Shown: piece after piece, positions 8,994 through 24,629 of the stretch
How the letters are laid out: the number at the start of each line of letters is the position of its first letter
How positions within the stretch are numbered: the first letter of the stretch is position 1
DNA from: Candidatus Binatia bacterium
GTDB lineage: Bacteria > Desulfobacterota > Binatia > Bin18
DNA: 64,000 nt
Direction of reading: 5' to 3'
Assembly (NCBI GenBank): GCA_963664395.2
Contig: OY761159.2
Location: forward strand, 4,704,001 to 4,768,000
Notes under the pieces: generated by a model
Seen by the model: only the letters and a program-made list of their open reading frames with translations
Databases searched by the model: none
What the model was told of the DNA's origin: nothing
Program-made: the position numbers and the translations under genes

Positions 8994-10628
8994 TCACTGA
9001 CCGGTATTGACCGGACAGGTGGTCAGGTTTGGGCCATCGGGTCCGTGCGTCACAAGCGAGTGCTGTTGCCACTCGGTATCGTTCGTTGCCGGGAAGTCAC
9101 TCCGTTGATGAACTCCGCGGCTTTCCCGCCGTTCCTGGGCCGCAGCGACAATGGCTTCGGCAACATCGATAAGCGCGCCCAACTCATAAAAGGTGAGCAA
9201 TTCATGGTTATACATTTTTCCGTGATGTCGGAGTCCAACCTGAGTGTAGCGAGTCTGTAAGTCGGTGACACAGCGGGCGGCCTCCCGCAATCCGGCTTCA
9301 TCTCGTACCAGTCCAACCTGCTCAGCCATTGTGGCGACCAGTTCGCGCCGAATCGTGACAATGGTATCCTCTGACACAGGCCGGGAAAAAATCGACTCAA
9401 GTGTTCGTTGGGCATCCTGCAGGGTAGAGTCGGCAATTGTCTGGGGAGCGATGTTCGACACCTGGGCGGCCGCGGCGCTGCCGGCCTGCCGACCAAAGAC
9501 AACGCTGGCGGTCAGCGCATTCCCGGCCAAGGCATTGGCCCCGTGCACCCCAGGAGAAGCACACTCTCCGGCAGCAAACAGACCGGAAACAGCCGTTGCT
9601 CCGTTCGTATTGGTCTGGATGCCACCGAGTACACGATGCATGCGCGGCATGACAGGCAGCGGCGCGCTGTCCAGACTGATACCAGCTATATCATTGGCCG
9701 CTCGCTCCAAATAGAGGAATCGGGCACCAATACGCTCTTTGCCAATCGAGCGGAAATCGAGTGTCGCGCCCTCCCCGGCGGAAGCGAGCGAGCGGCACAG
9801 CGCGTCCCGGAGCGGCAGGTCGTTGGTCTGCGAGTCGTTAATCTGAAAAATGGGCTGCCCAGCCTTGTTACACAGGACAGCGCCTTCTCCTAACGCTGCC
9901 TCAGAGGCGAAGGCGGCACGGTCACAAAAACCCAGCGGATGGTATTGCACCATCTCCATATCCCTGAGGCTCAGCCCGGCTCTGTAGGCCAGGCTCATGC
10001 CGTCACCGCAGCACGATTGCGAGGCCGTGCTCGGTGCATAGACACGCCCGGCACCACCCGTGGCCAGCACCACAGCGGACGCACTGAACGCATCAAGCTT
10101 GCCCGTTCCAAGTTCCAGGGCGAGCACTCCGCGACAGATGCCGTCCTCAACAACCAGGGAGGTCCCGAGCCACTCTTCATGACTGAGAATATCCTCCCGC
10201 ATACATTGCTCATAGAGCGTGTTCAGCACTGCATGACCGGTCATGTCGGCAGAAAATGCCGTGCGCGGGCTAGTATGCCCGCCGAGGGCCCACCGGTCGA
10301 ATTTGCCCTCAGCATTCCGGTTGAACGGCACCCCGATATGATCCAGATGAATAATGTCGTCCGAGGCGGCGCGGCACATCTCCTCGACAGCCGCTTGATC
10401 GCACAGGCCCGCTCCGGCCCGTACCGTATCCTGGGCGTGCTGCTGCCACGAATCGTCTTTTCCAAAGGCTGCATTCAATCCGTCTGACGACGTTGCAGAA
10501 TGGCTGCGTAGCGGATGGGTCTTACTGAGCAGGGCAACCTGTACCCCGGCATTGTTGGCCGCAAGGGCGGCCCGAAGCCCGGCAACCCCGCCGCCGACAA
10601 TAAGAACATCATATTTGGGCATAGACAC
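8994..10628 (-). CDS. SdhA/FrdA-family flavoprotein subunit with a divergent active site
   Basis: GGGVAG, RSHS, LATGG, MEMVQYHP, GLFAAGEC, R.ESRGVHQRSDFP. Confidence 0.9.
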   Translation of the reverse strand: MSMPKYDVLIVGGGVAGLRAALAANNAGVQVALLSKTHPLRSHSATSSDGLNAAFGKDDSWQQHAQDTVRAGAGLCDQAAVEEMCRAASDDIIHLDHIGVPFNRNAEGKFDRWALGGHTSPRTAFSADMTGHAVLNTLYEQCMREDILSHEEWLGTSLVVEDGICRGVLALELGTGKLDAFSASAVVLATGGAGRVYAPSTASQSCCGDGMSLAYRAGLSLRDMEMVQYHPLGFCDRAAFASEAALGEGAVLCNKAGQPIFQINDSQTNDLPLRDALCRSLASAGEGATLDFRSIGKERIGARFLYLERAANDIAGISLDSAPLPVMPRMHRVLGGIQTNTNGATAVSGLFAAGECASPGVHGANALAGNALTASVVFGRQAGSAAAAQVSNIAPQTIADSTLQDAQRTLESIFSRPVSEDTIVTIRRELVATMAEQVGLVRDEAGLREAARCVTDLQTRYTQVGLRHHGKMYNHELLTFYELGALIDVAEAIVAAAQERRESRGVHQRSDFPATNDTEWQQHSLVTHGPDGPNLTTCPVNTGQ

Positions 10629-10865
10629 TCTCTAGCGCAGGCCACTATAACCGAAATGGCACGAGAAGGGCAAATCCGGCAGAGTCTCACGTTGAACTTG
10701 ACTTGCCCCTCGGCGGCCGCCCCCCCATTCTCACACATGCGCGCACGTCTTTTCGGGTCCAGTTGACCGGGCCGCCTTGGCCCGCCCGTGCCTCCCGGTG
10801 CACCGCCGCGTTTCCCCTTCCCGCCTCTCGGCGGCGCCGGTCGCCTGGTGCGGCGCCCTCGTCAT

Positions 10866-10987
10866 GCGGTGTGAAGATTCCTCCCATATTGGGAGGGCCA
10901 CGCGCGGCGGGATGGGGTAATTCTGGGCGGTGTGAAGATTCCTCCCATATTGGGGGGGCCACGCGCGGCGGGATGGGCTAGTTCTGG
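10866..10987. repeat. 61-bp direct repeat x2, each containing the palindrome CCTCCCA-TAT-TGGGAGG (second copy imperfect)
   Basis: Units start at 10866 and 10927. Confidence 0.92.
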
Positions 10988-11015
10988 AAGGAGAGAGTCC
11001 GTGCGGCGTCAGCGG

Positions 11016-11100
11016 CCCGGCCAGGCTCTCGATGGAAAGGCCCAGGATGCGCAGTGAGACACGACTTTCCCAACTTTCGATTTCAAAGTGAGGTACGACC
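11016..11100 (+). repeat. Intergenic element copy R1
   Basis: ggctctcgatggaaaggcccagga.gcgcagtgagacacg is shared with R2 and R3; actttcgatttcaaagtga is shared with R3. Confidence 0.9.
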
Positions 11101-11101
11101 C

Positions 11102-14100
11102 ATGCATAGTGAAAAGAGTAGAAGAAGAACGAAGGATGAATCTCCGGACCGGCACCTCGTGGCCGGGGCGTGCGAACGAGCCGAGTCCCACAGCACAGGT
11201 GCATCGGGCTGTCAGCCCCTACGGCTGGCGTGCGCCGCTTGGGGGCTGCTCGGGCTGTGCCTGCTGGCGCTGCCGCTGCGCGTGGGGGCGGCCGTGCCGA
11301 CCGGCACCAACAGGACGGCGCTGGAGGCGCTGTACGATGCGACGGACGGAGAGAATAGTTGGACGACCAAAACGAACTGGAAGACGACTGATGGGGACTG
11401 GCACGGCGTCACCACGGATACTGATGGCAACGTCCTCGAGCTGGACCTCTCCAGGAACAAGCTGAGCGGGACGATTCCGGCGGCGGTGTGGACTTTGACC
11501 CAGCTCACTCAGCTGCGGCTCAACAACAATCAATTGAGCGGGGAGATACCGGAGGAGGTGGGAGATTTGACCCAGCTCACGGGCCTGCGGCTCAACAACA
11601 ATCAATTGAGCGGGACGATTCCGGCGGCGGTGTGGACTTTGACCCAGCAGCTCACTCAGCTGTTCCTCAACAACAATCAATTGAGCGGGACGATTCCGGC
11701 GGCGGCGGGGGACTTGAAGAACCTCATCTATCTCTACCTCCACGACAACAAGCTGAGCGGGGCGATTCCGATGGAATTGGGGAGCTTGCCCGAGATTCTC
11801 CACCTGGACCTCCACAAAAATGATCTGAACGGAGCGATTCCGAAGGCGTTAGGGGAGTTGGCCAATCTCACAATTCTGCGCCTCGACACCAACAAGCTGA
11901 GCGGGGAGATACCGGAGGAGTTGGGGAACTTGACCCAGCTCATTCATCTGTATCTCCAGGCCAATGATCTCAGCGGGTCCATTCCGGCGGAATTGAAGAA
12001 ATTGACCCAGCTCACGGGCCTGCTGCTCAACAACAATCAATTGAGCGGGGAGATACCGGCGGAGTTGTGGAGGATTTGACCCTTCTCACCACCCTGTATC
12101 TCCACAACAATCAATTGAGCGGGGAGATACCGGCGGCATTGGGGAAATTGACCCGGCTCCGCACCCTGTGGCTCCACAACAATCAATTGAGCGGGGAGAT
12201 ACCGGCGGAGTTGGGGACTTTGACCGCTCTCACCGACCTGCGGCTCTACAACAATGCGCGCTACCGCAATGCGGCGTTGAGCGGGCCTCTGCCCACCAGT
12301 TTCTCCAGCCTCACGGCGCTCAAGGAATTGCACGCCCAGAACACCTACCTCACGGTGCCCGCTGCCTTGGACAATTGGGCGGCGGGCCGCGCAGTCACCA
12401 CCGGCACTGCGGCCAGCAGCGGCACGATAACGCTGGACGCGGCCAACACGGCGCCGGGCGGGGTGTGGGCGAACGCGACAACACTGTACGTGTCGGACGC
12501 TGACGCTCTCGCCACCAAGGTGTTTGCCTACAAATTGGCCGACGGCAGCCGCGATGCCGCCAAAGATATTACGTTGGACCCCGAGAACACGGCGGCGCAA
12601 GGGCTGTGGGGGAATGAGACCACGCTGTGGGTGGCGGACCTCTTTGGCCACAAGCTGTACGCCTACACACTGGCCACCCGTAGCCGCGACAGTGCCAAAG
12701 ACATTGCCTTGGAAGAAACCAATCCCCGCGCTCTGTGGTCGGACGGGACGACCGTCTGGGTGGTAGACTCCTATAGCAACGTGTACGCCTACACGCTGGA
12801 CGGCAGCCGCCATATGGGCAGCGACTTTTCCTCGGGGCTAATTGCCGCCAACGATGTGCCGCGGGGGCTGTGGTCGGACGGGACGACAGTGTGGGTCGTA
12901 GACCCCGAGGACGTGCGCCTGTACGCCTATACGCTGGCCAGTGGCAGTCACGATGCGACCAAGTACCGGGTGCTGGACCCGGCCAACACGGCGCCGCGGG
13001 GAGTCTGGTCAGATGGGACGACGTGGTACGTGGCGGATAGTCGTGACCGCGTCGTGTACGTCTACGTCTACCGGAACCAGGGGCCGGAGGCCGTGGGCAC
13101 GCTGCCGAACCAGCGGCTGGCGGCTGGCGGGAGCGTCCAGATGGTGACCGTGACACACGCGTTCCGGGACCCGGACGGGGATGCGTTGACGTACAGTGTC
13201 GAGTCGTCAAATACGGCGGTGGTGATGGCGAGCGTGACGGGGGCGGAGGTGAGCGTGCAGCCGCCCGCCATGCTCCCGGTCACGACCTCGGCCCTGGTCA
13301 CCGTGACGGCGACGGACGCGGACGGCTCCCAGATGATGGCCACCCAGAGATTTGCCGTGCGGATAGAGGCGGCTGAGGATTTGCCGTCGAACCGGGGGCC
13401 GGTGGCCGTGGGCAGGCTGCCGGACTTGCTGCTGCAACGGGAGGCGGCGGGCGGGAGCACCCATATGGTGACCGTGACACACGCGTTCCGGGACCCGGAC
13501 GGGGATGTGTTGACGTACAGTGTCCACGTCGTTAGATACGGCGCTGGCCACGGTGAGCGTGACGGGGGCCGAGGTGGCAGTGCGGCCGCTCGTGGAGGGC
13601 CTGGTGACGATCACCGTGGGGGCGAGGGACGCGGACGGCTCCAATACGACGGCTACCCAGAGCTTTGACGTGCGGATTGGGCCCCCGCCGCTGTCTACAG
13701 GCACGGACACAGGCACGGACACAGGCACGGACACAGGCACTGGCGGCGGCGGTGGTGGCGGTGGTGGTGGTGGTGGTGGTGGTGGTGGCGGTGGTGGCGG
13801 TGGCGGCCGTCCCAGCCACGACGCCCACGGCAACACGCCGGGGCAGGCGACCCCCGTCACCCTGGACCCCGCCGGCATGGCCTCCACGGCCGGCCAGCTT
13901 AATACGGCCCCCGATGTAGACTACTTTACCGTAGACGTGCCCCACGCCGGGACGCTGGTGGTCACCACCACGGGCTCGACTGATACCGTCGGCACGGTAT
14001 GGCAAGACGGGGAAGAATTGGCAATGGCAGACAGTGGCGGCACGCGGCGGAACTTCCGGCTCAGTGTGCGGGTCCAGGCCGGGCCGGTGGTGATTGCCGT

Positions 14101-15010
14101 GGCGGGCAATGGGCGGCAGACCGGGGCGTACACCCTTCAGCTGACCTTGCTGCTGGGCTTTCTGGAGAATCCGGGCCCCAATTCGTTTCAGAGCGGCATC
14201 GGCGTCATTTCGGGGTGGACCTGTGAGGCCGAAGATGTGGAGATTGCACTCAACGGGACGGTGCAGGAGGCGGCGTACGGCACGGAGCGGGTGGACACGG
14301 CGGATATCTGTGGGGACACGGACAACGGCTTTGGGTTGTTGTTCAACTGGAACCTGCTGGGGGCGGGCGAGCATACGGTAGTGGCCACCGTGGATGGCAT
14401 CGAATTGGACCGGACCACCGTCACCGTGACGACGCTGGGCGAGGAGTTCGTGCGGGGGGCCGAGGGGAGCTGTACGGTCCCCGACTTCCCCCTGGCCGGG
14501 GAGACAGCGGCCCTGGTGTGGCAGCAGAGCAAACAGAACTTCGTGCTTGCCGCCGGCGCGGCCCCGAACGGCGCCAACCAGGCCGGGACCCCTGGGGTGG
14601 GGTATCTGGAGAATCCGAGCCCCAATTCGTTCCAAAGTGGCATTGGGGTGATCTCGGGTTGGGTGTGTGCGGCCAACGAAGTCGTAATCGCGATAGGGGA
14701 CCTGGGCTCGCAGGGGGCGGGCTACGGGACGGAGCGGTTGGACACCCAGGAAGTGTGTGAGGACACGGACAACGGCTTTGGGTTGCTGTTCAACTGGAAC
14801 CTGCTGGGGGAGGGAGAACATGAGGTGGTGGCCTATGTGGACGACGTAGAGTTAGGCCGGGCCACGGTGCGGGTGACGACGTTGGGACAGGAGTTTCTGC
14901 GGGGGGTTGAGGGCGAATGTGTGGTTGAGGACTTCCCGACGGCTGGCGAGAGGGTGACGTTGGGGTGGCAGCAGAACAGCCAGAACTTTGTCATGACAGA
15001 CGTGGAGTAG
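11102..15010 (+). pseudogene. Secreted LRR + WSDGTT beta-propeller + Ig-like repeat protein with the conserved duplicated C-terminal domain, broken by two frameshifts
   Basis: Plant-type LRRs (LxLxxNxLSGxIPxxLGxLT) continue from ORF 11054-12079 into 12067-13668; the second Ig repeat continues into 13520-15010; 2 extra nt near 12068 and 1 extra nt near 13525 relative to sister repeats. Confidence 0.8.
13697..13806 (+). repeat. 12-bp TGTD repeats followed by a GGY poly-Gly linker
   Basis: acaggcacggac x3 followed by a ggc/ggt run. Confidence 0.9.
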
Positions 15011-15133
15011 AGGGGTTGGACCGGTAAGATCGTGCCGCCCTCAGGGCCTACGATTGGGAGACCTTGGGTGCCGTCAAAGACCAAACACCCGGCGGCTCTC
15101 GATGGAAAGGCCCAGGAGGCGCAGTGAGACACG
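15011..15133 (+). repeat. Intergenic element copy R2
   Basis: About 120 bp near-identical to the start of R3; its 3' part matches R1. Confidence 0.92.
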
Positions 15134-15146
15134 CCCGGAGGGTGAG

Positions 15147-15752
15147 ATGAGTACATTCGCTATCGGTATGGTTGTTGTGGCGGTGGTTGCGGCGCCGGTC
15201 GCGTGGGCGCAGCCGCTTGAGTTTGAATCGATCGATCCGCCTTCCGTAGATAAGCGCTCTCCCGCCCTGAAACAGCGCAGTCCCCAGGCGAGAAGCGACT
15301 CCGGCCAAAGCGGCCAGGTCTATACCTACGAAGACGGCGACCGCACCGTGCGGGTGCAGTTGCAGTCCGACCTGGAGGTGAGCGGGGACAGCAGCGTCGC
15401 CAGAGGCAGCGGAGAGCACATCGTGACCAAGGACAGCTCCACGAAGGACCGCTCCGAAACAAGCACCGGGCAACCGGTGTTCCGCTCCGAATCCTCGGGC
15501 ACCCTGATGACCTTGCCCGGCGGTGTCCTGCTAGTGCTGGACGCGGAGTGGAGCACGGCAGAGACCAATGCCTTTTTCGCTCGCAACCGAATCAAGCTGG
15601 GCCGGGTGTCAGACTTGGATGTCGCCGCCAACAGTTTCTTCGTGGAGACCGAGCCGGGCTTTGCGTCTCTGAATTTGGCTAACACTCTGGCCGCGCAGGA
15701 CGGGGTACTCATCTCCAGCCCCAATTGGTGGAGAGAACATACAACAAAGTGA
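15147..15752 (+). CDS. Secreted protein, candidate stand-alone propeptide or chaperone of the downstream S8 protease
   Basis: Signal peptide ending AWA-Q; GGAGG RBS; C-terminal PVFR..LMTLPGGVLL...LANTL...SSPNW pattern. Confidence 0.7.
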   Translation: MSTFAIGMVVVAVVAAPVAWAQPLEFESIDPPSVDKRSPALKQRSPQARSDSGQSGQVYTYEDGDRTVRVQLQSDLEVSGDSSVARGSGEHIVTKDSSTKDRSETSTGQPVFRSESSGTLMTLPGGVLLVLDAEWSTAETNAFFARNRIKLGRVSDLDVAANSFFVETEPGFASLNLANTLAAQDGVLISSPNWWREHTTK

Positions 15753-15769
15753 ACGACTGACCCAAGACC

Positions 15770-18700
15770 ATGCACTCGCACGTGAGGAAAACACTGCTGC
15801 CGACGGCAGTGTGGGGACTGTGTTGGTTGCTACTGATTGCTGGCGACGTCTGGGCGCAGACCGCACCCGGCGCTCCCACCATCACTACGGTTGCGGCAGG
15901 ACACAGCAGCTCTCTCGGTCTCACCCTTGCCGTGACCTGGACCGCACCCGCCGATACCGGCGGCTCGGCCATCGAAGCCTACGATGTGCGCTTCATCGAG
16001 ACTGCCGACGACGAGACGGACGACGCCAACTGGACCGTGGAAGAAGGAGATGGTGCACTGTCCTATACTATCTCCGGTCTGATCGACAGCACGGAATACG
16101 ACGTGCAGGTGCGGGCAATCAACGCCAACGGCGACGGCGCCTGGTCCGCTACCGAAACGGGTACCACCTCCGATCATAGCGACACGACCTCGGGGGCGAC
16201 GAGCCTGACGCTGGACACCGATATGGGCGGCGTCATCGACCCTGGGACCGACGTGGATTACTTCACGTTCACGCTGACCAGAGAAACCGGTATGCTCATC
16301 TATACGACCGGTGATCTCGATACCGTGGGCGAACTCCAGAACAGCAGCGGCTCGGTGATTGACAGTGACGATGATAGCCCTCTCTCCGACACTCCGTTGA
16401 ATTTCTTCATGTGGCAAACCCTTGCAAGGGGAACGTACCGCATCAAGGTCTCCAGCTATGGAGAGGCTACGGGGTCCTACGTCCTGCACGCCAGGGCGAT
16501 GGTCGACAGCAACGGCAGTGCCAACGCGCAAGAGATTACCTTCGACAGTGCTGGAAACGGGGCTGCAAACGGGATTATCTCTCAGGGCGGTCGGTACGGC
16601 GACGTGGATTACTTCAAATTTACGCTCTCGGAAGCGACCGATATCGTCATTCATACCACCGGCCTGGTTGATGATACGGTAACGAACCTGTTTAACAGCG
16701 ACGGAACAGAGCGTCTTGCTGCCAACGATGACGGGTATCTGTGGCCGAGTTCGTATCAATCCCTGATCCGCACCCGCCTTGACGCCGGGACGTACTACAT
16801 CCTGGTCGCCAGCCGTCACCAGATCTATACCGGGTTCTACAATTTGCACGTCAACAAAGTGACGGAGCCGGGCAACTCCCTCGCTACCGCCACCCCCCTG
16901 ATCCTTGGTAAGGCGGGGGGCGGCCGGATCGACCCATCAGACGATGTGGACTACTTCCGCCTCGACATCCCCGAAACGACGACTATCTACTTGGGGGCCA
17001 TAAGTAAAACGGTGCAGGTGCATATCGACGGAGACTTACTTGATAGCAACGGCACCACGTTTTACCCAAATCTGCCTGAAGAGCTCTATGGTAGAGGCTT
17101 TCGTTTCTACGACCGCCTGACCGCGGGCACCTACTACATTAAGGTCACCCATGACGGTGACGACACCGGGCTGTACACTATTCGTGCGTTTGAAGACAGG
17201 AGCTACAACAACTTTCTGACCCGCTGTTCAAACATCCAGACTACTCTCGAAGAGGGCAGTGATCCGCTGTACGGCTGTCAGTGGCATCTGCACAACACGG
17301 GACAACTCACAGGCGGGACGGCAGGCGAAGACATCAACGTCGAAGAGGTCTGGACCGCCGGCAACCTGGGGGCCGGCATCAATGTGGCCGTGGTCGACGA
17401 CGGCATGGATTATACGCACGAGGATTTGAGCGCCAATGTGATTACGGCGCGTAACCACGATTACACCGCCGGCGAGGGCGAAGACACGACCGACATATTT
17501 GATCCCTTTGAAAACCATGGCACGGCGGTGGCGGGACTCATCGCGGCGCAGAATAACAGCCTGGGCGTACGGGGTGTCGCACCCCAGGCAAAAATCTACG
17601 GCCACAATGTCGTCCTGGATCCCACCGAGGCAAACGAAGTCGACGCCATGATACGCAACCTGGAGACTACCGCCGTCTCCAACAACAGTTGGGGACCTCC
17701 CGACGGGCTCGGACCGGCCACCGCTCCCACTATCTGGGAGATGGCGATGGAGAAAGGCATCACGGAAGGGTTTGGTGGCAAGGGCATCTTCTATGCCTGG
17801 GCTGCCGGAAACGGGGTGGAAGGAGGTTCCAACCTCGACGAGTACGCCAACCACTACGGCGTCACCGCCGTCTGTGCGGTGAGCGACCAGGGAAAGCGCT
17901 CCGCGTATTCGGAACGGGGCGCCAACCTGTGGGTCTGCGCGCCGTCGGATGACTTCGACCGCGGTCGGCACGAGATTACCACCACCGATAACGACGACTT
18001 CTACACCAACAGTTTTGGCGGCACCAGCGCGGCCACGCCCATCGTCTCCGGCGTGGCCGCGCTGGTGCGCAGCGCCAATACCGCCCTGAGCTGGCGGGAC
18101 GTGAAGCTCATCCTGGCCGCGTCCGCCCGTAAGAACGACCCGGACAACACCGGCTGGGAGGACGGGGCGCTGCAATACGACTCCGACACGGAGCGCTACC
18201 ACTTCAACCACGAATACGGCTTCGGGGTGGTGGATGCTAAGGCCGCCGTGGATTTGGCCGACGGCTGGACCGATCTTCCGACGCTAGGGCAGGAGACGAA
18301 ATCGTCCGAGAATCTCAACTTGCGCATCCCAGACAGAGGAACGGTCACCAGCAGTCTCACCCTGGGCTCTGCTGTCGCGTTCACCGAGTTCGTCGAAATC
18401 AACGCCGACTTCGGCCACCCTGCCTTCCGGGACCTCCAGGTGGAGTTGGTCTCCCCGTCGGGGACGGTGTCTATCTTATCCGTTCCCCACCGTTTACCCT
18501 ACATCGCGAGATTTATCAGAATCCCATTATGGGGCAGATTCCGGTTCGGCTCGGCCAAGCATCTGGGCGAGGACCCCGCCGGGACGTGGACGCTGCGCAT
18601 AAGCGACCGAGTGTCCGGAGACACCGGCACCCTGAATTCGTGGAGCCTGACCGTCTACGGGCACCGATCCACCCCCGGAGCACCGGACATCGACGCAGTG

Positions 18701-21700
18701 ACGCCGGGGATCGGCTCTCTCACTGTTGTCTGGAAGGAGCCGACCAATACTGGCGCATCCGCCATTACCGGCTACGACGTGCGCTACATCAAGACCACCG
18801 AGGACGAGACGGACGACGCCAACTGGACGGAGGTTGACACCGGCTGGACCTCCGGGGACGATCTGGAATACATCATCAGCAACCTGTCCGATGACGTTGC
18901 CTACGACATCCAGGTGCGGGCGGTCAACGACCAGGGCGACGGCGCGTGGTCAGACACGGCCACCGAGACGCCCTCAGGCGACGCGCCCTACTTCTCGGAA
19001 AGAGCCGCCACCACCCGGAGCGTCGATGAGAATGCGACCGCCGGCACGAACGTTGGCGCCCCGGTCGAGGCGACCGATCCCACCAACGAGACTTTGACTT
19101 ACACGCTTTTAGGCACCGACGCCGGCTCGTTTGATATCGATGACAGCACCGGCCAATTGTCAGTAGCCTCAGGGACGGCGCTGGACCACGAGACCAAGCC
19201 CAGCTACGCCGTCACCGTGACGGCCACCGATCCCGTAACGGCTACCGACCCCTCCGCAGACTCCGACTCCATCGCCGTGACTATCGAAGTCGAAGACGTG
19301 GATGAATCGCCCACGCTGACGGGCAAAGACAGCGTCTCGTATGCCGAGAACAGCATTCTCCCGGTCACTGAATACGACGCCCGTGACCCGGAGGAGGAGT
19401 CCCTCATTTGGTCGGTGGCCGGGACTGACGGTGGCGCCTTCTCCATCAGCAACGGTGTCCTGAGCTTCGACTCCGCTCCCGACTTCGAGGCGCCCCGCAG
19501 CAACGTCTATGAAGTGACCGTAGTCGCCTCGGATAGGACCTCCCGCCCCGCTCGACTGCCCGTCACCGTCACCGTCACCAACGTGGATGAAGTGCACACG
19601 CTGACGGAGCTGAGCCGCGTCTCGTCGTATGACGAGAACGGCATCGGGTCGGTTGCGGGATATATCGTCACCGACCCGGAGGGTGTGTCACCCACCTGGA
19701 CGCTGGCGGGTACCGACCGGGGCGACTTCACCATCAGCAACGGCGTCCTGCGCTTCACAAACTCACCCGACTTCGAGCAACCCGCCGACGCCGGTGGCAA
19801 CAATTTCTATGAGGTGACCGTACAAGCCACCGCTGGGATTCACACCAGAGAGCAGGCCCTCACTGTCCGTGTCACCGGCGTGGATGAACCGCCCACGCTG
19901 ACGGGACCGACCAGCGTGCCACTGTATGACGAGAACAACACGGCCCAGGTCGCCCGCTACACCGCCACCGACCCGGAGGGTAAGACCGTCCTCTGGTCGG
20001 TGACCGGAACCGACGCCTTCGATATCAGCAACGATGGTGTTCTCACCTTCAAAAGTCCGCCCGACTATGAGGCGGCCGACAGCCACACCGTGACCGTGCA
20101 AGCCTCTGATGAGACCACCGACCCCGCGACGCAAGCCCTCACCGTCACCATCAACAACCTGGACGAAGCGGGCCGCCTGACCCTGTCGTCAGAGCAGCCG
20201 CAGGTGGATGCCGCGTTGACCGCAACCCTGACCGACCCCGACATCCCTGTCTCTATCAACTGGGTGTGGGAGCGTTCCTCGAACAGGAGTACGTGGACGG
20301 AGATTGCTGGGGCGGACTCGGGCAGCTACACGCCGGAGACCGGCGACATAAGCAACTATCTGCGGGTCAGGGTGACCTACACCGACGGGCATGGGGAGCC
20401 CGACAGTAAAAGTTTCCAGCGTATGGCCACCAACCCGGTGAGGGATGAGCAGGGCAGGAACCCACCACAATTCCCGGAACCCACCACAACCCGTAGCGTC
20501 CAGGAGAACGCGGCTGCCGGGAGTCCCGTCGGCGCACCCGTGACGGCAACGGATGCGGACGAGGCGGACAAAGACCTGCTGACCTACACGCTCTCGGACG
20601 CTGACGCCGGTCCGTTTGCCCTCAACCCCGATACCGGCCAACTGACGGTGGCCGAGGGGACGGAGTTGGACCACGAGACCACGTCGAGCTACGCCGTCAC
20701 CGTGACGGCCACCGACCCCTCCGGAGCCTCCGACTCCATCGTTGTGACTATCACCGTCGAAAATGAGGATGAGCCGCTCACACTGATGGGACCGAGCGCC
20801 GTCCCGTACGCGGAGAACGACACGGGGCCAGTTGACACCTTCAGCGCTGACGACCCGGAGCACGAACACGACCCGATTACCTGGCCGATTACCTGGGCGC
20901 TAACAGGAGTCGATCGAAACTCTCTCACCCTCACCGCTAACATCACCGACGCCACCCTCACCTTCAACGACCCGCCCGACTACGAGGCGGACACCCGCTA
21001 CACTGTGACCGTGGAAGCCTCCGCCGGGAGCCATACCGCGCGACAGACCGTCACCGTCAACGTCACCGACGTGAACGAGCAGCCGACAATCACCAGGCCA
21101 GCCGATACCGATATCCCGTATGAGGAGCACGGCACGGGGCCGGTTGCCACCTACCGCGCCACCGACCCGGAACGCGACCCGATTCAGTGGACCGTCGATT
21201 CCGACGACTTCACCATCAGCGCCGGGGTTCTGCGCTTCCGCACCCCGCCCGACTATGAAGCGGACAACCGCTACACCGTGACCGTGACAGCCTCCGATGG
21301 AGAGTTTACTGATGAGCTGCCCGTGACGGTCAGCGTGACCAACGAGGACGAAGATGGCAGCCTGACCCTGTCGTCGGTACAGCCGCAGGTGGATGCCGAG
21401 TTGACCGCAACCCTGACCGATCCCGACGGCCTCGTCTCCACCGACTGGGTCTGGGAGCGGTCGCAGGACAACAAGCGGACTTGGGAGCCCGTCAAGGGGA
21501 CGCCCGCCGCCAGCGTCGAAGAAGACCTCTATACGCCGGAGACTGCCGACGTGGGCGCGTACCTGCGGGTCACAGTGACGTACACCGACGGGGCCGGGGC
21601 CGACAAGCGCGTTCCGCCGATCGTTGCGCCCTATGCGGTACGACAGGCGCGGGTCAATAACGATCCCCCGGCATTTACCGAGCCCACGGCCACTCTCACC

Positions 21701-23314
21701 ATCGGAGCCAACGCGAGAGCGGGGAGTAGCGTCGGTACACCGGTGAGGGCCGAGGACCCTGGTGACCCGCTCACCTATACGCTGGACGAAACGGAATCGG
21801 CTGCGGCCTGTTTCGATATCGACTGGCTCAGCGGCCAGATCACGGTGGGCCCACAGGGGGTGGCGCCCTGTGCAAACTCGGTGACGCGGTCACCCGGGCA
21901 GCGCACGATAAGCGCGAGGGCTGAGGAACCCAAGACCTACCAACTCACCGTGCTCGCCTCTGACCCGTCCGGGGAATCCGCCGACATCCCCGTCTTCATC
22001 ACCGTCTCGTCTTCTCCGCCGCCCCCGCCACCCCCGTCACCCCCGCCACCGCCTCCGCCTGATCGTGGGGGCAGCGTGGGTGGGGGCGGCGGCGGTGGGG
22101 GCGGGGGCGGTGCTCCCGCCTGTACGCAGGATGACGTGCACGCCAACACCGCCGCACAGGCCACTGACAGTGCGCTGTCTGCGGTGACGGCCGGCGCGAT
22201 CTGTCCAGCCACCGACGTGGATTATTTTACCGTCACCGCCCCCGGCCAAGGTCTCGTCTTTGTGGACACCACCGGCGGCGTGCAGACCCGAGGGATCATC
22301 TGGCAGAACGACGTAGTCTTGGCGTCCGGCTCCACGGGGAGCAGTGGGCAGGCCGACCGGCTTGGATATCGCGTGCAGGCCGGCCCAGTCGTGGTGGCCG
22401 TGCAAGGGCAAGGCGGGGCGACCGGGCCGTATGCCGTCGAGATCACCTTTGTGCAAGGCACTCTGGAGAACCCCGGCCCCGATTCGTTTCAAAGTGGTGT
22501 GGGCGTACTGTCGGGCTGGGTGTGTGAGGCGGCGGTGGTGGAGATTGAGTTGAACGGGATACCGCAGGAGGCGGCGTATGGGACGGAGCGGCTGGACACG
22601 CTGAGGGCGTGTGGCGACACGGACAACGGCTTTGGCCTCTTGTTCAACTGGAATCTGTTGAGAGATGGGGAGCATGAAGTCGTGGCCCTGGTCGATGGCG
22701 TGGAGTTGGGCCGGGCGACGGTGACCGTGACGACGCTGGGACAGGAGTTTCTGCGAGATGTGACGGGGACGTGTGAGGCCGCAGACTTCCCGACGCTGGG
22801 TGAGCGCGTGACGCTGGAGTGGCAGCAGAATAGCCAGAACTTCGTCATTGCGGGGGGGAGTCCCCCGGCTGGGGCCACCACGGGCCGGACGAGTGGGCTG
22901 ACGGGGTTTCTGGAGAATCCGGGTCATAACTCCTTTCAGAGTGGGGTCCGGGTGCTCTCGGGTTGGGTGTGTGACGCGGACACGGTCGAGCTTGCGATTG
23001 GGACCGCCGGGCGGCAGGTGGCCGCGTATGGGACGGAGCGGTTAGATACAGCCGGAGTCTGTGGGGATACGGACAATGGGTTTGGGTTGTTGTTCAACTG
23101 GAATCTGTTGGGGGAGGGGGAACATGAGGTGGTGGCCTACGTCGATGGGGTCGAATTGGGTCGAGCCACGGTGCGGGTGACGACCCTGGGGGCAGAGTTT
23201 CTGCGGGGGGTTGAGGGCGAGTGTATGGCGGAGGACTTTCCCATGCTGGGCGAGACGGTCACACTGGAATGGCAGCAGAATAGTCAGAATTTTGTCATTA
23301 CAGACGTGGAGTAG
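15770..23314 (+). CDS. Giant secreted kexin/furin-like S8 serine protease with FN3, PPC-like, P-domain and cadherin repeats and the conserved duplicated C-terminal domain
   Basis: Catalytic VAVVDDG / NHGTAVAG / GGTSAATP; AAGNG; YGFG; GTWTLRISD P-domain; SVDENA..VG.PV.ATD and PDYE cadherin motifs; 2514 aa. Confidence 0.92.
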   Translation: MHSHVRKTLLPTAVWGLCWLLLIAGDVWAQTAPGAPTITTVAAGHSSSLGLTLAVTWTAPADTGGSAIEAYDVRFIETADDETDDANWTVEEGDGALSYTISGLIDSTEYDVQVRAINANGDGAWSATETGTTSDHSDTTSGATSLTLDTDMGGVIDPGTDVDYFTFTLTRETGMLIYTTGDLDTVGELQNSSGSVIDSDDDSPLSDTPLNFFMWQTLARGTYRIKVSSYGEATGSYVLHARAMVDSNGSANAQEITFDSAGNGAANGIISQGGRYGDVDYFKFTLSEATDIVIHTTGLVDDTVTNLFNSDGTERLAANDDGYLWPSSYQSLIRTRLDAGTYYILVASRHQIYTGFYNLHVNKVTEPGNSLATATPLILGKAGGGRIDPSDDVDYFRLDIPETTTIYLGAISKTVQVHIDGDLLDSNGTTFYPNLPEELYGRGFRFYDRLTAGTYYIKVTHDGDDTGLYTIRAFEDRSYNNFLTRCSNIQTTLEEGSDPLYGCQWHLHNTGQLTGGTAGEDINVEEVWTAGNLGAGINVAVVDDGMDYTHEDLSANVITARNHDYTAGEGEDTTDIFDPFENHGTAVAGLIAAQNNSLGVRGVAPQAKIYGHNVVLDPTEANEVDAMIRNLETTAVSNNSWGPPDGLGPATAPTIWEMAMEKGITEGFGGKGIFYAWAAGNGVEGGSNLDEYANHYGVTAVCAVSDQGKRSAYSERGANLWVCAPSDDFDRGRHEITTTDNDDFYTNSFGGTSAATPIVSGVAALVRSANTALSWRDVKLILAASARKNDPDNTGWEDGALQYDSDTERYHFNHEYGFGVVDAKAAVDLADGWTDLPTLGQETKSSENLNLRIPDRGTVTSSLTLGSAVAFTEFVEINADFGHPAFRDLQVELVSPSGTVSILSVPHRLPYIARFIRIPLWGRFRFGSAKHLGEDPAGTWTLRISDRVSGDTGTLNSWSLTVYGHRSTPGAPDIDAVTPGIGSLTVVWKEPTNTGASAITGYDVRYIKTTEDETDDANWTEVDTGWTSGDDLEYIISNLSDDVAYDIQVRAVNDQGDGAWSDTATETPSGDAPYFSERAATTRSVDENATAGTNVGAPVEATDPTNETLTYTLLGTDAGSFDIDDSTGQLSVASGTALDHETKPSYAVTVTATDPVTATDPSADSDSIAVTIEVEDVDESPTLTGKDSVSYAENSILPVTEYDARDPEEESLIWSVAGTDGGAFSISNGVLSFDSAPDFEAPRSNVYEVTVVASDRTSRPARLPVTVTVTNVDEVHTLTELSRVSSYDENGIGSVAGYIVTDPEGVSPTWTLAGTDRGDFTISNGVLRFTNSPDFEQPADAGGNNFYEVTVQATAGIHTREQALTVRVTGVDEPPTLTGPTSVPLYDENNTAQVARYTATDPEGKTVLWSVTGTDAFDISNDGVLTFKSPPDYEAADSHTVTVQASDETTDPATQALTVTINNLDEAGRLTLSSEQPQVDAALTATLTDPDIPVSINWVWERSSNRSTWTEIAGADSGSYTPETGDISNYLRVRVTYTDGHGEPDSKSFQRMATNPVRDEQGRNPPQFPEPTTTRSVQENAAAGSPVGAPVTATDADEADKDLLTYTLSDADAGPFALNPDTGQLTVAEGTELDHETTSSYAVTVTATDPSGASDSIVVTITVENEDEPLTLMGPSAVPYAENDTGPVDTFSADDPEHEHDPITWPITWALTGVDRNSLTLTANITDATLTFNDPPDYEADTRYTVTVEASAGSHTARQTVTVNVTDVNEQPTITRPADTDIPYEEHGTGPVATYRATDPERDPIQWTVDSDDFTISAGVLRFRTPPDYEADNRYTVTVTASDGEFTDELPVTVSVTNEDEDGSLTLSSVQPQVDAELTATLTDPDGLVSTDWVWERSQDNKRTWEPVKGTPAASVEEDLYTPETADVGAYLRVTVTYTDGAGADKRVPPIVAPYAVRQARVNNDPPAFTEPTATLTIGANARAGSSVGTPVRAEDPGDPLTYTLDETESAAACFDIDWLSGQITVGPQGVAPCANSVTRSPGQRTISARAEEPKTYQLTVLASDPSGESADIPVFITVSSSPPPPPPPSPPPPPPPDRGGSVGGGGGGGGGGGAPACTQDDVHANTAAQATDSALSAVTAGAICPATDVDYFTVTAPGQGLVFVDTTGGVQTRGIIWQNDVVLASGSTGSSGQADRLGYRVQAGPVVVAVQGQGGATGPYAVEITFVQGTLENPGPDSFQSGVGVLSGWVCEAAVVEIELNGIPQEAAYGTERLDTLRACGDTDNGFGLLFNWNLLRDGEHEVVALVDGVELGRATVTVTTLGQEFLRDVTGTCEAADFPTLGERVTLEWQQNSQNFVIAGGSPPAGATTGRTSGLTGFLENPGHNSFQSGVRVLSGWVCDADTVELAIGTAGRQVAAYGTERLDTAGVCGDTDNGFGLLFNWNLLGEGEHEVVAYVDGVELGRATVRVTTLGAEFLRGVEGECMAEDFPMLGETVTLEWQQNSQNFVITDVE

Positions 23315-23473
23315 AGGGGTCGGGCCGGTGGGATCGTGCCGCCCTCAGGGCCTACGATTGGGAGACCTTGGGTGCCGTCAAAGACCAAACGCCCGGCGGC
23401 GTTCGATCGAAATCCCCAGGAGGCGCAGTGAGACACGACCTCCCCTTACTTTCGATTTCAAAGTGACACGACC
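23315..23473 (+). repeat. Intergenic element copy R3 (longest copy)
   Basis: Combines the R2 sequence with the R1 tail actttcgatttcaaagtga. Confidence 0.92.
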
Positions 23474-23542
23474 GCAAATCCAACCAAGCACTATTCGTCG
23501 ACCCTCCTCGCGTTGTGTTCTTGCAGTCCTCCAGCGTGCAGC

Positions 23543-24139
23543 CTACGCATCTTTTTCCACGCCGGTCCCGGCACATTCGATCAGTCGCTTTTCCGTGACA
23601 ATGTAGTCCACGCGCTCGTCATGCTCATCAATAGGGATGTGCGAGACGATTTGGTAGTCATAGGCAAGACCAACTCGAAAAGCTCCAGCTAAAATTCCTC
23701 TCAACGCCCGGTCATAATAGCCTCGGCCGCGGCCAAGTCGGTGGCCGGCCCGATCAAAACCAACGCCGGGGATCAGCACCAGATCAGTGTGGGCGACACT
23801 CGTGAGCAGGTCTTCCCCCGGTGGGATCAGTATATCAAAAATTCCTGGAATTAAATGATCTTCGTCTTGGCGCCTGACGAACTCAATCGCCTGTTTATCC
23901 GCGCTGATTCTCGGGTAGTAGACATATTTTCCTTGCCTGCGGGCTGCCTGCCACAGCCCGTCGGTTTCTACTTCATTTTCATGCGGACTGTACAGCATAA
24001 GCTGCCGGGCTTGGTGAAAAATCGAGCGAGCCAACAAACGGGCCGCAATCCGCTGACTGTTTTTCTCGACTTCCTGGGCTGAGAGTGCCCACCGCTGCCG
24101 GCGGAGTACTGTGCGGAGTCGTTGTTTTTCAGCCCGCAT
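23543..24139 (-). CDS. 5-formyltetrahydrofolate cyclo-ligase
   Basis: K..LR, Y.P..NEV.T, DLVLIPGVGFD..GHRLGRGRGYYDR, HDERVD.IVTE; start uncertain. Confidence 0.92.
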   Translation of the reverse strand: MRAEKQRLRTVLRRQRWALSAQEVEKNSQRIAARLLARSIFHQARQLMLYSPHENEVETDGLWQAARRQGKYVYYPRISADKQAIEFVRRQDEDHLIPGIFDILIPPGEDLLTSVAHTDLVLIPGVGFDRAGHRLGRGRGYYDRALRGILAGAFRVGLAYDYQIVSHIPIDEHDERVDYIVTEKRLIECAGTGVEKDA

Positions 24140-24176
24140 AAACGTCAATGGACCCAACAGGTCAGTATGAGTTCTC

Positions 24177-24629
24177 CTAGCCGCGTTCGGGTAAGGTGAA
24201 GGTCGCTTCACCGGTCAGAATGTTCTCACCTTTTTGATTACGCTGCCAGATCTCACAATCGACTAGAGGCTCGTTAGTGGGCTCGGCATCTGCATGATAC
24301 GTCCGCGTCACAACCCCGCCACAGGTCAACATATCGTCCGGAAAAACATTGGCGGCAAAACGCAGCTTGGTTTTTCGGATGTCCCAGGGATGGTGCAGCC
24401 AATCAGTCAGAAAACGATATAAAAAGGTTTCGTTCAGAGGGCCTTGTTGGACAACGTCAGGCAGTCCGCGTTCCTGCGCGTAGACACGATCAAGATGCAG
24501 CGGATTGGTGTCACGCAAAATAATGGCCACTGGGATATACGAAAGACGGTCCATCGGACCATAGGTCGCCTGGGGCAGTGGCATGCCCTCATGCGCATCT
24601 TCAAAAAAGATTTTTGGCCGGGTGTCCAT
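24177..24629 (-). CDS. MaoC-family hotdog dehydratase (HadB-like)
   Basis: DTNPLHLD..YA...GLP hydratase motif; RF...VFPDD. Confidence 0.85.
   Translation of the reverse strand: MDTRPKIFFEDAHEGMPLPQATYGPMDRLSYIPVAIILRDTNPLHLDRVYAQERGLPDVVQQGPLNETFLYRFLTDWLHHPWDIRKTKLRFAANVFPDDMLTCGGVVTRTYHADAEPTNEPLVDCEIWQRNQKGENILTGEATFTLPERG

Follow-up and report, generated by a model that had tools for sequence, protein, structure and literature searches.

The host of the element described here is a sponge-associated Binatia bacterium, and the closest described systems are mobile insertion cassettes (MICs), of which MIC231 of Bacillus is an example, together with MITEs and the IS1 and IS26 elements. The target duplication of IS1 is 8-9 bp. 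In a section of one published account (PMC3129680), MICs and MITEs are presented as IS-derived elements that lack a transposase and are moved in trans by the cognate IS. The tip GGnnnTG is given as common to IS1 and IS6/IS26 in a section of another (PMC6807381).

We analysed a 64-kb stretch of the bacterial genome (the window), in which 12,796 bp (10678-23473) form an insert that carries genes for surface proteins. This insert is probably (at a rough probability of 0.75) a cargo-bearing, non-autonomous transposon, of mobile insertion cassette type, whose ends come from a MITE family of the genus. Like MICs and MITEs, it has terminal inverted repeats, a target duplication of fixed length, passenger genes and no internal transposase; the same genome holds many short deletion derivatives, and a related transposase gene lies elsewhere. 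Unlike MICs, it carries an exceptionally large cargo of 12.8 kb, with a protease of 2514 aa among the eukaryote-like surface proteins that it encodes. The insert also differs in its three additional end copies, all internal, and in a palindromic module that is conserved; a cognate two-ended IS was not found. The pseudo-compound transposons and translocatable units of IS26 are similar in that co-oriented repeats alternate with cargo inside an outer 8-bp duplication, with a GGnnnTG tip and weak PF13610 matches. In contrast to IS26 systems, the internal repeats here are end fragments of 43-125 nt without any ORF rather than whole transposase-bearing IS copies in direct orientation, and no cointegrate or circle was observed for the insert.

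The insertion site is empty in related genomes

The insert lies between an sdhA-like gene and the 5-formyltetrahydrofolate (5-FTHF) cyclo-ligase gene, with inverted ends at its limits and an 8-bp duplication, GCAAATCC, outside them. The flanking features are as follows.

8994-10628, minus strand: sdhA-like gene flanking the insert (Pfam)
10670-10677, no strand: target-site duplication, left copy GCAAATCC (genome comparison with empty sites)
23474-23481, no strand: target-site duplication, right copy GCAAATCC (genome comparison with empty sites)
23543-24211, minus strand: 5-FTHF cyclo-ligase gene flanking the insert (Pfam)

The gap between the two genes was 100-171 nt in 19 of the 22 same-genus genomes in which both were found, and 12.9 kb in this genome (G000). 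Alignment of eight empty sites from relatives set the junctions at 10677/10678 and 23473/23474. The octamer was single in seven of these eight fetched sites and double around the insert. The site is empty in other species, and contigs from four public sequencing runs, each of a different study and one perhaps of the source sample, span at least one junction per run (X10 the left; X6, X8 and X2 the right). The original prediction had set invariance of the locus beforehand as its refutation; the locus was found to vary, with an empty site in related genomes.

The ends of the insert match those of a MITE family

This genome contains ten full copies of a MITE of 223-244 bp. They lie at unrelated sites, and the octamers that flank them differ from copy to copy. 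Duplications of 8 bp were scored in ten elements, namely nine MITE copies on contig C1 and a 319-bp element described below: eight were exact, one matched at 7/8 positions and one element had none. Because the 8-bp target duplications of the insertion and of the MITE copies differ in sequence at each site, DDE-type transposition is indicated rather than site-specific recombination. The consensus of the terminal inverted repeat is GGTAGTGTCTCA(C/G)TTTGAA, with a tip that fits GGnnnTG and a target duplication of 8 bp. The two outer repeats of the insert are listed here.

10678-10698, plus strand: left terminal inverted repeat GGCAGAGTCTCACGTTGAACT, which opens the insert (four substitutions against the 21-nt MITE end)
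23455-23473, minus strand: right terminal inverted repeat, reverse complement GGTCGTGTCACTTTGAAAT, which closes the insert (one substitution and a 2-nt deletion against the MITE end)

A search of the window with the 21-nt MITE end, allowing at most four edits, returned exactly three matches, at 10678-10698 (plus), 11080-11100 (minus) and 23455-23473 (minus), compared to a mean of 0.13 in shuffles. The first and last bases of the insert coincide with two of the three, the right boundary at 23473 being fixed by the empty sites. MITE ends begin with GGTAGTG and the right end of the insert, read as reverse complement, with GGTCGTG; the left end, GGCAGAG, is one base off GGnnnTG. The left-end motif was also found at the head of other promoter-like units, at C1:53367 and C1:298280. 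A MITE profile built from near-identical copies gave collinear but individually weak matches to the window (nhmmer, E 0.18-6.7), and we therefore relied on tests at fixed positions, that is, the edit-limited end search and alignments against shuffles. Among 27 relatives, the 18-nt tip pattern was present in 21 (reversed control, 0) and MITE DNA in 13.

The 319-bp element (C1:1770871-1771189), flanked by the duplication CAATGCTG, comprises a left end, a P-element (see below), a leader, about 43 codons of an LRR-family gene and a right end. It appears to derive by deletion from an element that carried genes. A matching duplication together with a right end was found at only two of 11 left-end-like sites checked, which were this insert and the 319-bp element. 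Collectively, the MITE-matching ends, the 8-bp duplication and the empty site favour the MITE or IS end that the original prediction had offered as its alternative.

Internal repeats share modules with the same family

A repeat search and reading of the sequence bore out the earlier claim of three co-oriented copies of one element, R1, R2 and R3, located at 11024-11071, 15094-15141 and 23398-23445 (each 83% identical to the first). The core shared by all three is about 43 nt long. The modules are listed in order.

10699-10868, plus strand: subterminal region (genome blastn, 68-92% identity to regions upstream of other P-element copies)
10869-10980, plus strand: two tandem P-element copies (GAAGATTCCTCCCATATTGGGAGGG...GGGATGGGGTA), conserved, palindromic and promoter/operator-like
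10981-11023, plus strand: spacer module (local alignment to other P-unit leaders, z 8.8, score reached by 0/1000 shuffles)
11024-11066, plus strand: R1 core, right-end-like, ending ...CAGTGAGACACGACT (repeat search and collinear alignment)
11080-11100, minus strand: R1 tail, an inverted 21-nt MITE end (GGTCGTACCTCACTTTGAAAT; three substitutions against the MITE end; nhmmer model positions 1-23)
15011-15093, plus strand: R2 T-module, a 5'-truncated unit without most of the P-element, directly after the stop (collinear alignment)
15094-15136, plus strand: R2 core, adjoining the native Shine-Dalgarno of the next gene
23315-23397, plus strand: R3 T-module, post-stop (collinear alignment)
23398-23440, plus strand: R3 core, similar to the final 36 nt of the MITE (alignment z 4.5, 1/1000 shuffles; nhmmer model positions 191-225)

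On sequence comparison, R1, R2 and R3 are copies of one modular unit of the MITE family, the post-stop sequence represents a shortened version of that unit, and the core resembles the other MITE end. The unit would consist, in order, of the left end, the subterminal region, the palindromic P-element, the spacer and the right-end core. R1 would be a complete unit with an extra inverted end, the tail, and R2 and R3 would be 5'-truncated copies without the P-element, with the tail present again after R3, where it would be the end actually used by the insertion. The MITE itself contains a module homologous to the P-element. The R2 T-module aligned with a P-unit at z 7.6 (0/1000 shuffles), and R2 and R3 were 92% identical over the 123 nt of T-module and core. 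The R2 core alone had no significant likeness to the MITE end (z 1.8). Homology to the native leader in relative G004 begins immediately after the R2 core.

A search of the 5.04-Mb genome with a 23-nt core pattern, at up to three mismatches, gave four matches, compared to 0 for the reversed pattern as control; the repeat is therefore not due to chance. The fourth full copy lies at C1:3363703-3363725 on the minus strand, and a fifth, partial copy at C1:4612558-4612634 has the post-stop part only. No match to the 311-nt R1 region was found outside this genome in 40 related genomes, including 24 of the same genus (a draw, perhaps not the full set, from a total of 27). The exact core pattern had 0 matches in metagenome contigs, and in other genomes 80 loci that follow the C-terminal domain contained neither T-module nor core. 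Since core DNA was not found in 27 same-genus genomes or metagenome contigs, this genome is the only one with known internal copies.

The palindrome is part of the terminal inverted repeat

R1 and R3 had been noted to share the palindrome ACTTT-CGATTTC-AAAGT (ACTTTCGATTTCAAAGT), and we located it at 11073-11089, where it is associated with the R1 tail, and at 23448-23464. Its arm-spacer-arm geometry had led to the proposal that it serves as a lambda-type core site for a tyrosine recombinase, or as an integron-like attachment site, where an enzyme from another locus would insert and excise gene cassettes. As in lambda-type core sites and integron attC sites, short inverted arms surround a 7-bp spacer and co-oriented copies lie between genes, so that each gene block is bracketed by them. 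The genome also encodes five PF00589 integrase-type genes, one of which (C1:3371477-3372013) is about 8 kb from the fourth copy. However, the palindrome with its spacer is the inner part of the 21-nt terminal inverted repeat common to ten MITE copies at unrelated sites, whose 8-bp duplications vary by site, and the insertion ends at the tip of the repeat, which is 9 nt past the palindrome, rather than in the palindrome spacer. In addition, R2 has no palindrome at all, and PF00589 was not found in the window, the closest gene being more than 1.3 Mb away. The copies had also been expected to flank genes with the same C-terminal domain consistently, but only 3 of the domain's end-points in the genome, out of at most 90, have the post-stop module behind them. 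A recombinase site is thus the least probable of the explanations weighed here and has very little chance of being correct. From the proposal of a mobilisation site for swappable cassettes acted on in trans, the mobile DNA with surface-protein genes and the absence of the enzyme from the window are supported in outline; the tyrosine-recombinase site is not supported.

The cargo encodes surface proteins

The insert contains three genes.

11102-15010, plus strand: surface-protein gene of LRR / Ig-like type, spread over three frames (11102-12079, 12067-13668, 13520-15010) by two frameshifts and containing the shared C-terminal tandem domain
15147-15752, plus strand: secreted 201-aa ORF with no Pfam family
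15770-23314, plus strand: 2514-aa S8 subtilase with P-domain, fn3 and cadherin-like repeats and the shared C-terminal tandem domain (Pfam)

At 12066, 2 nt are missing in contigs of runs X8 and X10. Paralogs of the 201-aa ORF are encoded at C1:3363081-3363689 and C1:151655-152233. The Pfam content of the insert was limited to LRR, subtilase, cadherin and fn3, all on the plus strand. None of the nine minus-strand ORFs tested (at least 198 aa) matched a Pfam family, and no transposase or recombinase domain was found by Pfam within the insert.

As originally described, R2 and R3 begin directly after their genes, both of which end ...DVE-TAG (stops at 15008-15010 and 23312-23314), and new genes start shortly after R1 and R2: the ATG of the LRR gene (11102) is 1 nt past the R1 tail and the ATG at 15147 is 10 nt past the R2 core. 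The P-element is present in 14 copies in the genome, all co-oriented with and upstream of ORFs, at 13 loci that mostly lead to genes of the same surface-protein family. The post-stop module is conserved at 91%, compared to 58-83% for the coding sequence before it. The position of the copies between stop and start codons, the P-element loci and this conservation would each suit a purely regulatory RNA or DNA signal (leader, terminator or operator) that is immobile and kept in paralogs by duplication, the insertion having arisen by illegitimate recombination. In contrast, no Rfam match was obtained at the gathering score or at E <=1, save one chance microRNA match, two of the three copies folded no better than shuffled RNA (z for the three, -2.1, -0.25 and +1.25), and no terminator-like site was found in the repeat. 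A regulatory signal would also leave the inverted ends at both boundaries, the 8-bp duplication and the MITE copies unexplained, and we consider this explanation very unlikely. For the cargo-carrying transposon, the P-element unit may act as a putative portable promoter/operator from which transcription crosses the core and enters the gene behind it, although a scan of the P-element found no sigma-70 consensus.

Candidate transposases

PF03400 (DDE_Tnp_IS1) was matched in G004 (28.2 bits), G041 (38.9), G008 (37.3) and G000 (30.1), with a cut-off of 24.1, and at no position inside the window. The mutual homology of the IS1-family copies in G004 and G008 begins exactly at GGTAGTG, 12 nt beyond the gene. 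The stop codon of the G000 transposase gene (C1:1801124-1802071), which was located via a weak PF13610 match, adjoins GGTAGTGTCC. The G000 and G004 transposases are 42% identical, with only the first 9-10 bases of the tip in common. The insert resembles the IS1 family in its GGnnnTG tip, its 8-bp duplication and the PF03400 transposases beside the repeat tip in G004, G008 and G000. It differs in that the repeat is at one end only of those IS copies, the other end not being repeat-like, and in its left end GGCAGAG; the IS1-like transposases here are also distant from the Pfam model (28-39 bits). Matches to PF13610 (IS6-type DDE) scored 21-28 bits, with two of four under the 27-bit cut-off, one just over it and the G000 copy at 24.3.

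We found no autonomous element whose two ends both match, either in G000 or in the relatives examined. Inspection by eye of the ORFs beside nine lone repeat tips in G000 revealed nothing transposase-like. Repeated segments of at least 600 bp in G000 comprised strain-variant contigs and two small elements, whose ORF translations we tentatively took for IS5-type transposases; PF00872 and PF01610 had no match in this genome. Two sets of candidates for an autonomous element were rejected: a 1.8-kb repeat-bounded stretch in G023, which has neither transposase nor duplication, and six further lone ends in relatives, which have no transposase.

Assembly of the insert

We propose that an IS1-family DDE transposase, provided in trans, mobilised the block by binding both of its outer ends, either in one step or after the cargo had joined a resident unit. 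In a two-step origin, the sdhA/cyclo-ligase spacer would first have received a small MITE-like unit, made up of left end, P-element, core and tail, whose transposition produced the 8-bp duplication. The genes would have come later, when a circular or tandem donor recombined with the core/tail of the resident unit, either by homology or with the help of a transposase. By analogy, this would resemble IS26 translocatable units joining a resident IS copy. The same core-plus-tail occurs in R1 and R3 as a direct repeat around all the genes, and the 389-bp unit at 10678-11066 is already MITE-like by itself. In a hybrid copy at C1:3363686-3363935, the left modules are of R1 type and run into a right side of R2 type with its gene. 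The core of this hybrid contains 15 nt duplicated in tandem, GGAAAGGCCCAGGAT + GGAAAGGCCCAGGAG, as might result from recombination there. This copy is 96% identical to the window over 15101-15893 and only 85% identical over the rest of the protease gene. Against two steps, the R1 and R3 tails are about 85% alike with a 2-nt indel, and therefore do not represent a fresh duplication, and the 15-nt duplication could be simple replication slippage. Furthermore, no circular or cassette-less joint was present among the 15 joints listed, of 160, which came from Logan contigs of public runs (300-2300 nt long, ending at repeats); an empty-site joint was not among these 15 either, and the 15 joints carry no weight in either direction. 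This two-step origin appears unlikely.

For the transposon with MITE-family ends, the internal end copies would be relics or alternative ends, and may also provide short homologies for the rearrangement of gene blocks. Slightly less likely again than two steps is that they are working sites, where the transposase or guided homologous recombination adds, removes and reshuffles surface-protein blocks behind portable promoters, as IS26-like translocatable units acting on bare ends; the hybrid copy would then be one product.

Implications for sponge symbionts

Sponge symbionts have abundant eukaryote-like surface proteins with leucine-rich repeat, cadherin and fibronectin domains, and how these families expand and move is poorly documented. 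This locus offers a concrete case, in which about 12 kb of surface-protein genes lie between transposon ends, with exact junctions, a target duplication and an empty site in sister species. The promoter-like module belongs to the same transposon family as the ends of the insert, and a puzzling conserved intergenic repeat is explained in ordinary terms. Annotators of Binatia genomes gain a terminal repeat and a MITE to mask or track. If the internal ends do work, this sponge symbiont would have a swappable repertoire of host-facing proteins.

Organisation of the repeated element and adjacent genes

A repeat search of the window (family D17), together with reading of the sequence, recovered three co-oriented copies of an intergenic element, as the original prediction had described: R1 (11024-11071), R2 (15094-15141) and R3 (23398-23445). 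R2 and R3 were read to start directly after the stops of two genes ending ...DVE-TAG, and they are 92% identical over 123 nt. An ATG lies 1 nt past R1 and 10 nt past R2, and ACTTTCGATTTCAAAGT is common to R1 and R3 (11073-11089 and 23448-23464). The 5.04-Mb genome has four occurrences of a 23-nt pattern for the core, the ~43-nt part shared by the copies, and none of the reversed control pattern.

Genes at the locus
Left flank, minus strand: sdhA-type flavoprotein gene (Pfam)
11102-15010, between the flanking genes: leucine-rich-repeat (LRR) protein gene, split over three frames
Between the flanking genes: secreted ORF, 201 aa, without family
Between the flanking genes: S8 subtilase, 2514 aa, with fn3 and cadherin repeats
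Right flank, minus strand: 5-formyltetrahydrofolate cyclo-ligase gene (Pfam)

The two frame shifts of the LRR gene, near 12066-12079 and near 13520-13530, are not in long homopolymers. Two nucleotides at 12066 are absent from contigs of public runs X8 and X10, in which the gene's first two pieces would share a frame; either this strain has a young pseudogene here or the assembly contains an error. Glycine-rich/proline-rich low-complexity linkers (GGT/GGC runs; PPPPPP...GGGGGG) at 13735-13811 and 22019-22110, where reads appear to break, precede the C-terminal domain pair of both large genes. This pair, two cysteine-containing domains of ~150 aa in tandem (...LENPGPNSFQSG(I/V)GV(I/L)SGW.C...; 14056-15010 and 22357-23314), ends many giant secreted proteins. 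It gave one weak Pfam match, to DUF3869, has relatives in many Binatia and also in MAGs of Competibacteraceae and other Gammaproteobacteria, and is possibly a sorting or anchoring domain that has no name yet.

The genes lie in a 12,796-bp insertion

Both flanking proteins were searched in 27 same-genus genomes and both were present in 22. The flanking genes are 100-171 nt apart in 19 of these; the other three, which are more distant, have a gap of ~2 kb occupied by an ordinary 575-aa amidohydrolase-like gene. The gap in the source genome is 12.9 kb. Comparison of eight empty sites with the window set the junctions to the base, at ...GAGAAGG GCAAATCC | GGCAGAGTCTCACG... on the left and ...AAAGTGACACGACC | GCAAATCC AACCAAGC... 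on the right, so that the insert is 10678-23473 (12,796 bp), with a direct duplication of 8 bp at its two sides. The octamer GCAAATCC is single-copy in seven of the eight empty sites. A sigma-70-like promoter of sdhA (10644-10673, minus strand; TTGCCC, 18 nt, TATAGT) has its -35 hexamer in or next to the duplicated octamer, which places the insertion just upstream of an intact promoter.

Part of the stretch was found in 11 public sequencing runs from five studies, sponge metagenomes included. The left junction is spanned by a contig of X10 (10141-10819, five differences) and the right junction by contigs of X6, X8 and X2; these four bridging runs come from four studies, and one may be the source sample. 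Neither an empty-site joint nor a circle joint was among the 15 of 160 joints listed, which is not evidence of absence. All 13 small contigs of the assembly (C2-C14) are variants of stretches of the main contig, C1, at 94-99.6% identity, several with block differences: C3 is without ~9 kb present at C1:1985903-1995209, and there are insert differences in C2 and C6. The small contigs resemble strain haplotigs from loci of variable structure.

The insert ends are those of a MITE family

The left-end motif of the insert was found again across the genome, mostly as inverted pairs 223-244 bp apart. These define a MITE with ten full copies, one on a strain-variant contig, and the terminal repeat GGTAGTGTCTCA(C/G)TTTGAA. 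We inspected ten elements for duplications (nine C1 copies and a related 319-bp element): eight had exact 8-bp duplications, one had a 7/8 match and one had none, and the sequence was different at every element. Duplications made by IS1 elements are 8-9 bp long. An 18-nt tip pattern (one mismatch allowed) was present in 21 of the 27 same-genus genomes, with no hit for the reversed control, and MITE DNA in 13.

With up to four edits, the 21-nt MITE end has exactly three matches in the window (shuffle mean 0.13): 10678-10698 (+), 11080-11100 (-) and 23455-23473 (-). Two of these begin and end the insert as independently set by the empty sites; the remaining one is the R1 tail. The palindrome with a 7-bp spacer, which the original prediction had likened in geometry to a recombinase core site, is thus the inner part of the MITE terminal repeat (...ATTTCAAAGTGAGACACTACC). 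The proposed lambda-type tyrosine recombinase site for swapping surface-protein cassettes fails on three counts: the boundary position is wrong for it, the flanking octamers vary among MITE copies, and R2 is without the palindrome. The genome's five integrase-type genes are all far from the window. One of them (PF00589; C1:3371477-3372013) lies ~8 kb from a fourth copy of the element, which we take as coincidence.

The repeats are copies of one modular unit

Upstream of R1, at 10869-10980, a palindromic module of 50 nt, the P-element (GAAGATTCCTCCCAT(A/T)TTGGGAGGG...GGGATGGGGTA; palindrome CCTCCCA-N3/4-TGGGAGG), occurs twice in tandem. The source genome has 14 copies at 13 loci, the window and 12 others. 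At every one of the 13 loci, an ORF 40 aa or longer begins 32-174 nt downstream on the same strand (180 aa or longer at nine), and most lead into the same surface-protein family, as judged by coordinates. A sigma-70 scan found no consensus in the P-element. We also considered that the repeated element is purely a regulatory RNA; there was no Rfam match, no consistent fold (z -2.1, -0.25 and +1.25), and no terminator in a terminator scan.

Collinear alignment gave one modular unit of left end, subterminal region, P-element, spacer and core. R1 (10678-11066) comprises the complete unit, with an additional inverted end after it; R2 and R3 start inside the unit and are without most of the P-element, keeping a spacer-like part and the core. 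A P-element homolog is also present inside the MITE. A profile of near-identical MITE copies matched the left end, P-element, R1 tail and R3 core in the correct order, each match being individually weak (E 0.18-6.7). We tested the links between modules by local alignment against 1000 shuffles.

Module links (z; shuffles reaching the score)
Post-stop module of R2 against a P-unit elsewhere: 7.6; 0/1000
R1 spacer against the leader of other P-units: 8.8; 0/1000
R3 core against the last 36 nt of the MITE: 4.5; 1/1000
R2 core alone against the MITE end: 1.8; 78/1000, not significant

The sole tie of the R2 core to the unit is its 83% identity with the other cores.

The fourth copy (C1:3363703-3363725, minus strand) is upstream of a secreted-ORF paralog and has the same upstream region as R1. 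It lies in a unit (C1:3363686-3363935) joining R1-type left modules to an R2-type right side, with 96% identity to the window over 15101-15893 and 85% over the remaining protease gene. Its core has a 15-nt tandem duplication, one half R1-like and the other R2-like, a hint of recombination inside the core; slippage is the alternative. Upstream of the P-unit there (C1:3363939-3364052, L146), 86-114 nt from the beginning of the secreted ORF occur a second time, so that the P-unit lies between two copies of the gene start. A fifth copy (C1:4612558-4612634) consists of the post-stop part alone and follows a third gene that carries the shared C-terminal domain.

The related 319-bp element (C1:1770871-1771189, duplication CAATGCTG) holds a left end, P-element, leader, the initial ~43 codons of an LRR-family gene and a right end, as an internal deletion in a gene-carrying element would leave. 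A two-step origin, in which a MITE inserted first and the cargo arrived later by recombination at core and tail, seems to us improbable.

Origin of the cargo

The secreted ORF and protease pair also lies downstream of an amidase-like gene in four relatives (G004, G001, G007 and G002) and at C1:152233, and this neighbourhood is its older home. At the latter locus, the repeat tip GGTAGTGTCTCCCTTTGA (C1:152380-152397, L144) is inserted 24 nt before the position of the G004 start codon. In the window, homology with the native leader of the pair begins directly past the R2 core, which thus acts like the end of an element placed against the Shine-Dalgarno sequence.

A tblastn search with the shared C-terminal domain gave as many as 90 end-points across the genome, some of which are not gene ends; three are followed by the post-stop module. 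The right-end tip (at most two substitutions in 12) is within 400 nt of eight, against ~1.4 by chance on our own estimate. Among 80 loci in other genomes, four have a right-end-oriented tip 78-290 nt past the gene, none has one in the opposite orientation, and the reversed control gave no hit. The association of the tip with C-terminal-domain genes is real but loose.

Candidate transposase and relation to known elements

No transposase or recombinase domain was found in the insert on either strand, and PF00872 and PF01610 had no match in the source genome. PF03400, the IS1 transposase domain, occurs in five of the 27 relatives. Homology between the IS copies of G004 and another relative, G008, starts exactly at GGTAGTG(T/C), 12 nt past the transposase gene, and the G004 end closely matches the MITE end (about 20/22 bases by hand count). 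The source genome has a single-ORF IS1-family gene at C1:1801124-1802071 (PF03400, 30.1 bits; cut-off 24.1), whose stop codon adjoins GGTAGTGTCC and whose protein is 42% identical to that of G004. This protein has an N-terminal zinc-finger-like motif, and the element has the right end GGTAGTGTCCTAATAAAAAG and a degenerate left-end tip. The other end is not repeat-like in any of the three IS copies (G004, G008 and the source genome), and thus a complete autonomous partner is still missing.

A passage of PMC6807381 gives the GGnnnTG tip as common to IS6/IS26 and IS1, and IS6-family duplications as 8 bp where recorded. The end signature here is IS1-like, or possibly IS6-like. As outlined in parts of PMC3129680, mobile insertion cassettes and MITEs are a known class that the structure fits. 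Four features set it apart: how large its cargo is and what it encodes, a palindromic module that is portable, end copies nested within it, and the lack of an autonomous partner with two ends. None of the papers listed by full-text literature searches dealt with such elements in Binatia. The mobile-element reading accounts for the repeat by ordinary means, and bears on the way in which sponge symbionts spread host-facing proteins.
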